In this document: piece after piece, positions 539-44,290 of the stretch
How the letters are laid out: each line of letters opens with the position of its first letter
Numbering within the stretch: position 1 is the first letter of the stretch
Source: Eledone cirrhosa
Taxonomy: Eukaryota
Assembly: GCA_964016885.1 (NCBI GenBank)
Contig: OZ024741.1
Coordinates: forward strand, 364,498,001-364,562,000
Length of the DNA stretch: 64,000 bases
Direction: 5' to 3'
Notes under the pieces: generated by a model
Databases searched by the model: none
The model's input: the letters and a program-made list of their open reading frames with translations, nothing else
What the model was told of the DNA's origin: nothing
Translations under genes and position numbers: made by a program

Positions 539-3002
539 GTGAGTAGATATTTCTTTCTAATAATATTCATGTCTCTCCTCTTTTCAGTCAGTCACTTAAA
601 ATATTGAGTTAAACTCTAAGTTTACTCAATTATATATACTCTCTAAATATTTCTGTATTACTATCAAACTGTTATGTATGTTGAGGATATGTTTTTTTTT
701 TGTTTTTTTTATGAAGCATCCTATTTCAGATTAAACTGATATAAATGAGACTGGATGCTGATAGGACAAAGAAAAGACATTATTATTAGACATAAAATGC
801 TTTACATTAAAGCTGGAACTGCTATTAGATATAAAATATTTTACTTGCAAACAAGGATTTCTGTTGGTTTAGGTATATAAAATGCACCCAATGAACTTAA
901 TAAAGTGATTGGTGTTATAAAAGACTTTCAGCCATAGAAAACTTGCTAAACAAAAATTCAAGAGGATTCTTCAGTTGTTTTCAGTGCATGAAAGCGTCCC
1001 TAGTGCTGGTTCCACAATAAAATGCACCCATTTCACTCTGTAAAGTGGTTTAATGCATGTAAGCAAAATGCAGGTCTTGGCCATCTTAGATAGAGGTCAG
1101 TAGCTCATATTGAGTATTGTCTTGACCTGTTCAACCTATGCCAACTTAGAAAAGCAGACATTAAATGATGATGATGATTGAAGAATACCAGACTCTAATC
1201 CTATTGACATCATTTGAAAAGGATTAAAATTTCGCCAAAATTTCTGGAAAAGTCTAATTTTTAAAGTAAGATATTAAATATCTAACTACAGTTTCAAGAC
1301 ATTTTATGCGTAATGATAAAAATGAATTTCTTTGAGCCTTATCAGCTTTAGTCTTATTTTGACCAGCTTCATTAAACTGCTTTAATCAGACTAAATTCAG
1401 GGTTTGAAAGACATTGTTATATATATATATATATATATATAAAACAAAGTTTGCCCACCCCCACCAAAAAAAAAGAAAAATTATTACACCTTGAAATATT
1501 ATTTCGAATTTAAGACATTTTCTTGCTTTCCTATATTTATTTAATTTTCTTTGATTTCAACTCTTTTTATAATTTTTACCACTTGAAAAACTTAAGACTT
1601 AATCATTTTTTTTTCTAATTTCAGACATTATTTTTACCCCCTTTTCTTTAAAAAAGTAATCCTTTTTTTCTTCATTACACTCAAAGAATTTTCAATAGAT
1701 TAATTAATTCCTTGTTATTAGTTTTAAAAATCTATCAATGAATCATATCAATAACTACAAATAATAAATAAATGCTACAATATGAGGCATTGTTTTCATA
1801 AGAAAGGAATCACTTATTGTGATTAGTGTAATCAAAATTGAAATGTTCATAGTAATTTGTATTTCTGTATAGGACATGATTTTGTAAAAAATTTTTTTGT
1901 GCATACTTTTTAGGTTGAGAAAAAGTATGTGTGGCATTCAATTTTTTTTTTGGCATTTGCAAATATTTTGAGAAATCGTTGACAACTGATGATATTCTAT
2001 TTACAACCATCATACAAGATGAATTCAGTTGTATTCAATATATATGCTGCATGATTAAAAATACTGGCAGTTGATTGGTTCATCATGAAGCTCAGGGGAG
2101 GAAGAGTGGAATACTAGAGCTCTCCTCTTTTTCTCCTGAATGAACCAATCAGTACTGTAATCAAAATAATTACACTAAACTAGATATATTCATGATATGC
2201 AATGATGTTAGATTGTAATAAATATTATGCACTTCTCAATATCAAACAGATTTAGTATATTCTTTTAAGATAAATGTTATATAGTTAAAATCCCTACACA
2301 ATTTTGCAAATCTTACTTCACACATTATTCTTAATTTTCATTTTAGTTTCATATAATAGAAACAAAATTATGTTCATTTATGTCTGATTTATCATTCTGA
2401 TTACAAAAGATTGATTCTTAATTTTGAAGTTTTAAGTTCAATAACTTAATAATTTAAAGTTATTTATAGGCAGTGAAATGGCAGTCATTAGAACTTTGGA
2501 TTAAATGCCTTGGAATTTGTTTAGGCTTTCTACACTCTGAAGTCAGATCCCTTTGAGGTCAACTTTGTCTTTCATTCTTTTGGGGATTGATAAATAAAGT
2601 CCCCTTCAAGGGCAGCAGACTGATAGAATTGTCAAAGAACTGGGCAGAATACTTTGCAGTATCTGATCTGGCACTATGCATTCTGAGTAAAAATCCCACC
2701 TCTTTTTGCTAGGTGTTGCAATCAGCAGATACTATTAGAAATTGGAAGACCAATGGAAACAGTTTCCTTTATTTGATTTAATGATGAATGGCTCCTTTTT
2801 TTTTTTCATTGATTATTCTTTGCAAAGAAAAGAATAGCCAATGAGAAATGACTTTACATTAAATAAAAAATTCTAGCTAAAGTAAAAAATGAAGTTTCTC
2901 ATTTTTGCATGATCTGGGCCAAGACAATGGTTGCAGATATTCAACATAGAGAAATATGTAAGAATGCCACTAACTCATTGGTGGATTTTCCATACACATA
3001 TA

Positions 3003-3883
3003 CAGAATATGGCAAAGAAAAACCTACTAGATATTAAAGGTTAGCAAAAAGGATATGGTAAATGCTATTTAAAATCCTATTTATATTATTTAAAAATGCA
3101 TAGAATGCAGTTTATTCTCAGTTGATTTTGAATATGAAATCATCCAGATGATGGTTTTCATTCTTGATGTTCATTTGTAGTCAATTTCTGAAGTTTTGCA
3201 TCACTCTGCTGGTCATTTCCAGCACTATACTGCAATTTCTTAGCATATTGTTTTTGGCCTTCTGTTCATTAATGGTTTTTGGTCAATGTTTGTAGAGCCC
3301 AGCTTTCAGATGACCTCAAAGAAAAAGGTCACAAGGATTATAAGGGTTTAAATTAGGTGATTGTGTAACCCACTGAACATCATCCCATAATCAGAAACAG
3401 TTCTCACAAAAAACCTTCATTTATATTCTTCCCATGTGAGCAGTAGCCCCATCCTGTTGAAATCACATATCTGCATTTCCAAATTTGGTTGGCTTTGATT
3501 CCAAGTTCATAACACCTTCACACACCAATGTAAAGTTATTGTAATTGTTTTACCATCCTCCTCAAAAAGGTAAAGGCCATAAACACCAAAGTCTTGTAAC
3601 AATATGACAGTCATAGTATCATTGTGTTGAATAAATGATTCAATGATGAACATATGGTCCACACTTGTCCAATTCATGACCAGTTCTGAAATAAAATATT
3701 GAAAATATTCAAGTAATTATTCAACACAGAACAGATTTGAGTTTATTAGTTATGTAAGATCAAAATCAATTGAAAATAAATTGCATATTATGCAATTAAA
3801 TTTATGTAATAAAATTTTGAATAGCATTTACCATATCTTTTCTGTTAACCATTAAAATCTGGAAGGTTTTTTGATGAACTCTA
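3003..3883 (-). mobile_element. Decayed, internally deleted Tc1/mariner-superfamily transposon
   Basis: Long imperfect TIRs (ggatatggtaaatgctatt / aatagcatttaccatatc). Minus strand retains FQQDGAT and SPNLNP..CDLFL*GHLK transposase remnants. Confidence 0.75.
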
Positions 3884-4789
3884 AATGTGGCTGAAATTTA
3901 AATATTTTCCTGTATTCTCAACACCATCATATTTGTTTAATAATTATTTTTTTGGCAATTTTAGCCATGTATGTGAACTCTGGGACAATGGCAGCAAAGA
4001 TTCAATATAGAGAGTCACATAGGGATGTCACAGATACATTGGTAGACCTCTATAAATACATATATTGTTCAGATCAAAATATATTCCTAGTGGTTAAGGT
4101 GTTGGGCAATGCACTGTGTCTTTGAACAAAACACTTCATGTTTCTCCTGTCAACACAGCTAAAAGTGAGTACCAGCAACATCAGCTGGGTTAACTCTGCA
4201 ATGTATTTATGTCCTGTCGAAGGGGGAAGTTTTATACTCCTAGTCACTTAATGCCAATGAAACTCGTATAAGCTTCAGCCTGATACACCTCCAGGTTTGG
4301 GACAGATTTAACCTTTTATTTTATTCCCTATACCATCATGTTAACTTAATTATTTTCTATAAATTTTGTTTATATTGTCTGTAAATTAAAATGATAAATT
4401 TATCATGATTAGCAGTAAAAAAAAAACAAAAAAACAATCAGAAATAGATAGATTTCTATTTAAAAATCAGAAATAGATAGATTCATTTTAAGCAGTGAGT
4501 TATTAGGACATTGAATTAAATGCCTCAGTATTTGTACCAGCTCTCTGTGCTCTGAGTTCAAATCCATTCAGTGGTGATGGATTGGTGGAGTTGTTAAAAT
4601 GTCTTGGATGAGATGTTTTTGCAGAATCTGTTTTGGCTGTGTATTCTGATTTCAAATCCCACCTCTTGTAACCTGAAAGATAGTGAGGCTCCTTCCAGGA
4701 GTTGTAACCAATAGATAGTATCAGCAATGGAAAAACCAGTGGAAACATTGGTCTGTTGTGATTATCTAGTACATAGAATAATATACAAA

Positions 4790-5860
4790 TGTCAGGGAAG
4801 TGAATAGTGTATGAGTCATGATATACATGTATGTATGTGTATGGAGGAGGAATATTAGGTGTAGTGTTGGCGAATCTCAGGAAGCATGGAGGTTTTAAAG
4901 GATGCAGTGTCTCGACAGCTAATAACTGATGCAGGTAGTTTGTTCCATGCTTCAGCAACTCTGAGCGTGAAAAATGTTTCCGAAAGTCATGGGAGCTGTG
5001 CTGTTTTCTGACTTTGTGGGCATGCCCACATGTGCTAGACACATGGAAATCAAAAAGGTACTCAGGGTTGTTGGCAAGATGGTTATTCATTTTGTGGGTG
5101 TTTACCAAGTCAGTTGCCAGACGTCGGAGCTTCAATGTATCCATGCCCAGGGAAGAAAGGCATTCAGAGTATAGTAGATGCCTGATGGAGGGTATTTGCT
5201 TGGTTGCATGTCTCTGAACAGTTTCTAGGAGGTCAATGTTCTGAGCAAGATAGGGGTTCCTGACTGGTGATGCAAATTCTAAGTGTGGCCGCACCATAGC
5301 TATGTACAGCTTTAAATAGATAGCTGGAGAGCGGCTGACAAAGGTCTTGCTGAGTGATGCTAAGACATCCTCGGCCTTCTTGACAATTTTAGAGACGTGC
5401 TTCGTCCAACGCAAATCGCTGCTGACCGTAATGCCTAGGTCACGTTCACAAGAAGACTTCTGGATATTAGTCTTGTGGAGGGAGTATGTGGACGCTGGGT
5501 TTTTACTCCCAAAATGCATGGTGGTGCACTTGTCCACAGCTAGCTTGAGTTGCCAGTCTGTGATCCATTGTTGCATTGTGTCCAGGTCAGATTGCAGGCA
5601 AGATCTATAGTGTTCAGGAACTGTCCTTTTATCTCAAGGTACAGCTTGATGTCATCTGCATATTTCAGTACTGTGGCATTCTTTAAGTTGGCATCTATGT
5701 CATTAATATATAAACAAAAGGGGGCCAAGAACAGATCCCTGTGGTACACCAGATGACATCTCATTTGGTGAGAAATGCTGTCCTAGAACCATGACTACCT
5801 CTCTTCAACTGAGAATGAAGGACTTCAACCAGTTAAAAAGATCATCCTTCACACCCATTT
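4790..5860 (-). mobile_element. 5'-truncated CR1/L2-group LINE, RT C-terminal half, frameshifted
   Basis: ORFs 5540..5764 (LKYADDIKLY) and 4503..5576 (KCTTMHFG, ERDLGITVSSDL, VRPHLEFA, LETVQRHATK). Confidence 0.9.
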
Positions 5861-43406: not shown

Positions 43407-44100
43407 ATATATATATATATATATATATATATATATATATATATATATATATAATATAATGTATATATATATATATATATAATATAATGTATATATATAT
43501 ATATATATATATAATATAATGTATATATATATATATATATATATATATACACATAATGTATATATATATATATACACATAATGTATATATATACACACAT
43601 AATGTATATATATATAATGTATATATGTATATATGTATATATATATATGTAAATGTGTGTATGTATGTATATATGTGTGTGTGTGTATATATGTGTATAT
43701 ATATATATATATATATATGTATGCGTGTATATATATGTGTGTGTGTGTATGTATATATATATATATATAATATATATAGATATAAATGCATATATATACA
43801 TATACAAATGTGTGTGTGTATATATATATATATATATATATATATATATATAATATATATAGATATAAATGCATATATATACATATATAAATGTGTGTAT
43901 ATATATATATATATATATATTTATATATATATGAGAGAGAGATAGATATAAATGCATATATATTCATATATGTGTGTGTGTGTATATATATTTATATATA
44001 GAGATATAAATGCATATATATATATACATATATAAATGTGTGTGTGGATCTATCTATCTATCTTATAGATAGATATATATACACACACACACACACACAT
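43407..44100. repeat. Compound (TA)n/(TG)n microsatellite block (similar at 357-447, 14800-15100, 17468-17557, 19958-20160 and others)
   Basis: Directly visible. Confidence 0.95.
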
Positions 44101-44103
44101 ATA

Positions 44104-44181
44104 CAGGGTGTCCCAAAAGTCAGTAGACCATTTCAAATTATAATATATATAAAATTGTCTGGTGACATTTGAGCCACCCTG
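44104..44181. mobile_element. Small Tc1/mariner-type MITE
   Basis: TA-CAGGGTG...CACCCTG-TA with imperfect TIRs of about 25 bp. Confidence 0.7.
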
Positions 44182-44290
44182 TAAATATATATATATATTT
44201 GTGTGTATATGTGTATGTGAATAATTTGTAATTATATGTTGTTTATCAATATAAAATGAAAAGTAATATTAACTTCTATTATATTTTCAG

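Follow-up and report, generated by a model that had tools for sequence, protein, structure and literature searches.

A well-described counterpart of the kinase considered here is mouse SAD-A/BRSK2 (PDB: 4YOM and 4YNZ). According to the available portions of its description (PMC4686854), the kinase-UBA linker is flexible and makes some kinase contacts, and helix 3 of the UBA domain packs on helix C; removal of the UBA region raises activity about threefold, and substitutions in the linker have little effect. Neither isoforms nor splicing is mentioned in those portions of the paper. Cell-type-specific splicing of a SAD kinase is described for C. elegans sad-1, but there, in the accessible part of PMC6641836, cassette exon 15 alters the C-terminus and not the linker. 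Here we analyze part of a SAD/BRSK kinase gene of the octopod Eledone cirrhosa, contained in a window of 64,000 nucleotides (nt) of forward strand (assembly GCA_964016885.1, contig OZ024741.1, positions 364,498,001 to 364,562,000; window positions are counted from 1). The encoded protein has the domain order of mouse SAD-A together with an AIS-like segment. In the intron that follows the end of the kinase domain two segments, one of 45 nt and one of 51 nt, correspond to optional exons of Octopus gene models and, judging from this correspondence, are probably spliced in independently in E. cirrhosa too; their peptides would be inserted into the kinase-UBA linker.

In Octopus, automatic models of BRSK2-like isoforms of the same gene carry both inserts at the same junction, singly or together (O. 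sinensis XP_036362962-969, O. bimaculoides XP_052827888-895, O. vulgaris CAI9729815/6). None of the models listed contains any of the other five segments that the initial annotation of this intron had combined with these two into a candidate array of seven. The event is ordinary two-cassette splicing, already present in public gene models; since cassette exons are also common in neuronal kinases, the degree of surprise is modest. The arrangement differs from that of gastropods and bivalves, which at the same junction swap 17 residues at constant length (types A and B, see below), whereas in octopods optional pieces are added before a fixed B exon. There is also a resemblance to the eMIC/SRRM neural microexons, which in the accessible part of PMC8797185 are short frame-keeping exons; here, the exons in a neuronal gene measure 45 and 51 nt and carry the associated motifs only in part. 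Splicing in Octopus is highest in neural tissue and is not unusual among invertebrates, according to the available text of PMC9699675, in which BRSK is unmentioned; nor does BRSK figure in the available main text of a preprint that uses O. bimaculoides as an outgroup (bioRxiv 10.64898/2026.09.05.749416). We found no paper on the two-cassette event or on the A/B pair in a literature consisting mainly of open-access main texts; supplements, for example those of the last two works, may list the exons described here.

Two cassette exons matching Octopus gene models

Relatives were gathered by a protein search with the largest exon of the window (the best 120 of 1,815 relatives, plus isoforms from cluster look-ups; 15 of the 21 members of the Octopus protein cluster are covered), and inserts were tallied in the 34 cephalopod proteins that contain the exact peptides of both flanking exons. 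Only four insert lengths occur: 0 (21 proteins), 15 (1), 17 (3) and 32 residues (9). The 15-residue insert corresponds to the peptide of segment 8606-8650, the 17-residue one to that of 23144-23194 (Table 1); furthermore, the ends of the Octopus inserts coincide exactly with the AG and GT that bound these segments in the window. The models of O. bimaculoides represent all four combinations (none, 2; first only, 1; second only, 1; both, 3), those of O. sinensis represent three (none, 1; second only, 1; both, 6), and those of O. vulgaris two (none, 1; second only, 1). RNA-seq junctions underlie the isoform sets of RefSeq.

The splice sites of the two segments point in the same direction: at the strict thresholds defined below, they are the sole stop-free candidates of 28-99 nt with a length divisible by three (2 versus 0.18 expected). 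A TGCATG motif lies about 50 nt downstream of 8606-8650. In addition, an island of 155 nt (8557-8711) is matched by a DNA contig from run X23, with 14 mismatches and 3 gaps; among the matches listed for this run, the contig is the only one of eight pieces that lies beyond a repeat at 4.5-5.9 kilobases (kb).

Several observations weigh against independent inclusion in E. cirrhosa. Inserts are absent from 11 of 11 Logan cephalopod proteins, from 5 of 5 Sepia models and from the 1 Argonauta model, which could mean that the event is minor or of narrow distribution; linker-restricted protein searches (6 shorter and 25 near-length proteins) also returned no insert outside the genus Octopus. What speaks for inclusion are protein models predicted in other species, and the annotations of the three Octopus species could depend on one another. 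Moreover, the 45-nt exon differs from its Octopus counterpart at 2 of 14 codons, against complete identity to O. bimaculoides BRSK2 isoform X9 in the seven constitutive exons of the window (208/208 residues); the two codon changes suggest a weaker protein constraint on this exon. As for assembled reads, none of the sequencing runs listed as containing this stretch is of RNA; contigs of runs X2, X6, X9 and X22 (the last of these DNA) over 22820-23700 leave 23144-23194 uncovered, a blank among contigs not being evidence, and those of X1, X6, X9 and X23 over 450-14000 are swamped by repeats, with no joint or loose end at 504-538 or 7344 either way among the matches listed.

These points bear on an alternative that we consider possible but doubtful: the cassettes may be real but minor, included at a low level with little protein function, and kept by overlapping RNA elements. 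The 17 insert-free proteins from outside the genus Octopus would agree with it, as would the two residue changes in the 45-nt exon. It also draws on an inner AG at 23149-23150 in the 51-nt exon, use of which would give a frameshifting 44-nt form (23151-23194) that meets a stop at once; this form is the top-scoring candidate in the intron among those with a length not divisible by three. That such a decay-prone form tunes gene dosage is an equally doubtful part of the same proposal. On the other hand, the 51-nt peptide is unchanged between E. cirrhosa and three Octopus species, both cassettes keep the frame and are stop-free, and the annotated models take the in-frame acceptor. Two cassettes that are spliced in independently remain our preferred reading.

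Table 1. Exons, candidate exons and host intron in the window (ranks are by splice score among 1,240 candidates).
Feature	Position	Strand	Remarks
Constitutive exon, end of kinase domain, phase-2 donor	504..538	+	Peptide identical to that of Octopus BRSK models
Host intron, 43,752 nt	539..44290	+	28% under repeat matches
Candidate microexon, 15 nt, strong sites, unverified; also an AG/GT site	7344..7358	+	Rank 3; top recursive-site-like score
First cassette exon, 45 nt; basic peptide of 15 residues	8606..8650	+	12/14 whole codons match, 10 Octopus proteins; acceptor 6.6 bits, donor 8.7 bits; rank 4
Candidate, 90 nt, likely chance	16251..16340	+	Acceptor -3.0 bits; rank 195
Second cassette exon, 51 nt; basic peptide of 17 residues	23144..23194	+	16/16 whole codons match, 12 Octopus proteins, three species; acceptor 8.4 bits, donor 12.3 bits; rank 2
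Candidate, 36 nt, likely chance	28366..28401	+	Acceptor -0.8 bits; rank 46
Candidate microexon, 15 nt, unverified, absent from the earlier list	32584..32598	+	Rank 1
Candidate microexon, 15 nt, unverified	35665..35679	+	Rank 5
Candidate, 12 nt, probably not an exon; 3' end is a pyrimidine-AG/GT site	39838..39849	+	Acceptor 2.9 bits; rank 8
Linker exon, 52 nt, B type of the molluscan A/B pair	44291..44342	+	Sole intact pair member in the window (whole-window profile scan, species tally)
Exon opening the UBA domain	49516..49628	+	

Chance level of the seven segments and the short candidates

The initial annotation had described seven AG...GT segments in this intron as candidate exons of a combinatorial array. 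A direct check of the sequence bears out their coordinates and their lengths, all multiples of three, as well as the lack of stops in phase 2 and of TA or TG ends; they also lie in non-repeat sequence as had been said, since self-BLAST of the window, run against itself and 31 loci of the same genome, places none of the seven under a repeat match. Segments with these general properties are numerous: the intron contains 11,266 AG...GT segments of 9-99 nt, 3,801 of them with a length divisible by three and 1,240 of these also stop-free. Splice sites were scored with a matrix trained on 19 acceptors and 19 donors of the kinase gene, which is a small training set; the 19 true acceptors score from 6.4 to 16.5 bits. 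At thresholds that admit all seven segments, we count 26 candidates versus 23.6 ± 7.1 in 20 local dinucleotide shuffles, 9 of which reach 26, and the opposite strand gives 16. In the range of 3-99 nt there are 29, versus 27.3 expected from the gene's other introns (a scaled control of 244 kb of upstream introns, in which two true exons were left unmasked; neither is in the strict list of this control). An excess of the set of seven over chance is thus not borne out, whether the comparison is with shuffled intron or with the other introns.

The picture changes with strict thresholds (acceptor 5 bits, donor 7 bits), which were picked after the scores had been seen. Five candidates then persist (7344, 8606, 23144, 35665 and 32584), two of which are the annotated exons, versus 1.6 ± 1.2 in the shuffles (0 of 20 reach five) and 0.90 expected from the other introns. 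The real excess is confined to these strong-site candidates. The acceptors of 16251, 28366 and 39838 score below all 19 true ones. The five segments other than 8606 and 23144 are most likely unselected look-alikes, with some room for exons among the three 15-nt candidates. Judged by the Octopus protein models, the idea of freely combinable linker exons survives for two of the seven segments, with four variants and 0-32 added residues, and not for 128 variants and up to 88 residues. Nor is the term microexon suitable for the two supported exons, which at 45 and 51 nt are above the limit of 27 nt given in the accessible text of PMC8378409.

A larger combinatorial set, in which the two cassettes are accompanied by one to three of the 15-nt microexons (7344, 32584, 35665) to give up to 32 variants, is in our estimation unlikely; taken singly, each of the three may be a real exon, although we would sooner doubt it. 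Exons of 12-15 nt are easily overlooked by annotation pipelines, and for lengths up to 27 nt the strict thresholds yield three stop-free candidates divisible by three, every one of 15 nt, versus 0.72 expected from the other introns (Poisson P 0.036). That value is tempered by the choice of threshold after scoring and by its origin in 1 of 12 cells, the remaining three short-class cells having P values of 0.47, 0.11 and 0.095. Moreover, the peptides of the 7344, 16251, 28366, 35665 and 39838 segments and of 32584 occur in 0 of 34 cephalopod proteins. The features of eMIC-dependent exons listed in the accessible part of PMC8797185 (UGC by the acceptor, a long AG-free zone, a UCUC tract and a strong branch point) are patchy here, and no candidate unites them all. 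Among the short candidates, TGC lies by the acceptor for 7344 alone (AG-free zone, 10 nt) and a branch-like motif is found for 35665 alone; As for the cassettes, two TGC accompany 8606, with an AG-free zone of 29 nt, and none accompanies 23144; a TGC is present at the constitutive exon 504 as well.

It is quite improbable that the AG followed by a donor at 7344 and at 39850 marks recursive-splicing points that aid removal of the long intron. These are the two best AG/GT sites in the intron, 2 versus 0.18 expected from the sense strand of the other introns, but the count does not stand out from every control, the antisense strand yielding 2.69; we found no paper joining recursive splicing and molluscs in the mainly open-access literature. 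Segments 16251, 28366 and 39838 are very improbable as real exons. That all seven segments are exons, with up to 128 variants, is scarcely credible: five of the seven place among the eight highest splice scores of the 1,240 candidates and all are frame-keeping, stop-free and outside local repeats, but their number at the admitting thresholds equals chance, three of the acceptors are weaker than any true one, and the 90- and 36-nt segments, long enough for annotation, are in none of the 34 proteins.

Linker length and a probable A/B exon pair in molluscs

The distance from the kinase-end motif to the start of the UBA domain is 31-32 residues in 180 of the 196 proteins that have both motifs (242 proteins in the set), which indicates that in animals the linker is nearly uniform in length and normally under constraint. 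Outside this range are the 13 insert forms of Octopus, a single shorter form, and two models with tandem linker peptides (P0092, from an annelid, and P0221, from a gastropod). At the position of exon 44291-44342, two alternative 17-residue peptides occur among the isoforms of 12 species, out of 22 gastropods and bivalves that have at least two models each (pairs P0020/P0198, P0029/P0026, P0061/P0060, P0139/P0141 and others); nine of the remaining species have B only and one has A only. The A-type peptide starts with Gly-x-Lys, like arthropod and vertebrate linkers, and the B type is like the octopod one. The scallop, venerid, Mya and Dreissena models examined have B only, like cephalopods, and all 34 cephalopod proteins carry the B type. 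On this protein-level pattern, A and B probably form a mutually exclusive pair of exons in which A precedes B.

No intact A exon was found in a profile scan of the whole window: scores of the 119 AG-52-GT segments of the intron reach at most 2.9, versus 57.6 for true A peptides. Two homologous linker exons of equal length and equal phase are accordingly not present in the window. An A-like frame at 18943-18994 was rejected as an A exon, having no donor and 10 matches to a dispersed repeat.

Another observation concerns the 45-nt cassette itself. Its first half weakly resembles the molluscan kinase-end/A junction, with a local score of 28.6, which is reached by 4 of 564,208 control positions, and the cassette is the best four-residue match to the start of A among 43,639 intron positions, with two others nearly equal. 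By chance, about 0.3 such junction-like matches are expected in the intron, and one repeat-derived frame scores higher; for an in-frame match within one of the two supported exons, the chance is roughly 1 in 1,000, calculated after the fact. A simple relic would leave unexplained why part of the matched junction belongs to the upstream exon. We regard the 45-nt cassette as a conceivable, yet rather doubtful, relic of a lost A exon. An extended scheme is improbable: octopods would have turned the either-or pair into an additive code, with the A exon remodeled as the 45-nt cassette and supplemented by a second, new cassette of 51 nt and as many as three neural microexons of 15 nt, the resulting tether versions (up to 32) setting the tightness of self-inhibition in different neurons. 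Were it confirmed at the genome level, such a replacement of alternative exons by additive cassettes at a single junction would make an attractive example of how splicing evolves.

Predicted consequences for UBA docking, and the wider gene

The insert falls between residues 271 and 277 of the SAD-A chain in 4YOM. The 15-residue insert has four Lys/Arg and the 17-residue insert three, which makes seven in 32 residues, and there is no acidic residue in either; inclusion would thus add a basic stretch of 15, 17 or 32 residues at the start of the kinase-UBA linker. We tentatively propose that a longer basic tether could loosen UBA docking modestly, or alternatively add a binding patch. The longer-tether mode is deemed the most likely because of the effects of UBA removal and of linker substitutions in mouse SAD-A noted above, within what is available of PMC4686854. 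Looser docking would be expected to raise activity modestly, at most about threefold going by the mouse enzyme, and would do so in the subset of transcripts that bear an insert, which are probably neural. SAD/BRSK kinases shape axons and synapses. The natural linker swaps of other molluscs and the linker extensions of octopods would offer a ready test, by the assay described in PMC4686854, of a role for splicing in SAD autoinhibition.

The gene extends over about 342 kb in a genome of 3.0 gigabases. It encodes an AMPK-family kinase domain followed by the UBA domain, with 4YOM and 4YNZ (SAD-A/BRSK2) as best PDB matches (E ~1e-177). The segment before KA1 that resembles the SAD-A AIS, as that element is given in the accessible part of PMC4686854, is encoded by an exon just beyond the window end and is invariant in an alignment (A1) of 18 proteins. 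The host intron had been singled out as giant, and within the window it is: the remaining five complete introns measure 788-5,173 nt. Gene-wide, that distinction is lost, since there are other introns of about 120, 39 and 37 kb (intron 1, 119,975 nt; intron 6, ~39.4 kb; intron 2, 37,083 nt), and intron 5 is 18,611 nt; the host intron is not exceptional within its gene. With both cassettes included, it is divided into pieces of about 8.1, 14.5 and 21.1 kb. The ~39-kb intron follows a short kinase exon past the activation-loop threonine (contig position 364444520), the acceptor of which is nearly without a pyrimidine tract. On the minus strand of the window, broken reading frames at 4503-5782 (covered by many repeat contigs) and 62117-62521 resemble fragments of reverse-transcriptase retrotransposons.

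Splice variation is also evident elsewhere in the gene. Two 60-nt exons in the C-terminal tail (contig positions 364573870 and 364583729), 9.8 kb apart, encode similar peptides between near-identical splice flanks; on this likeness, they are a tandem exon duplication, and models include either, both or neither. A 72-nt exon after the UBA domain (55599-55670) is another cassette, skipped in 6 of the 18 aligned proteins (1 Sepia model and 5 Logan proteins). Finally, models from O. sinensis and Sepia use an alternative donor that adds 48 nt (61023-61070, 16 residues) to exon 60820.

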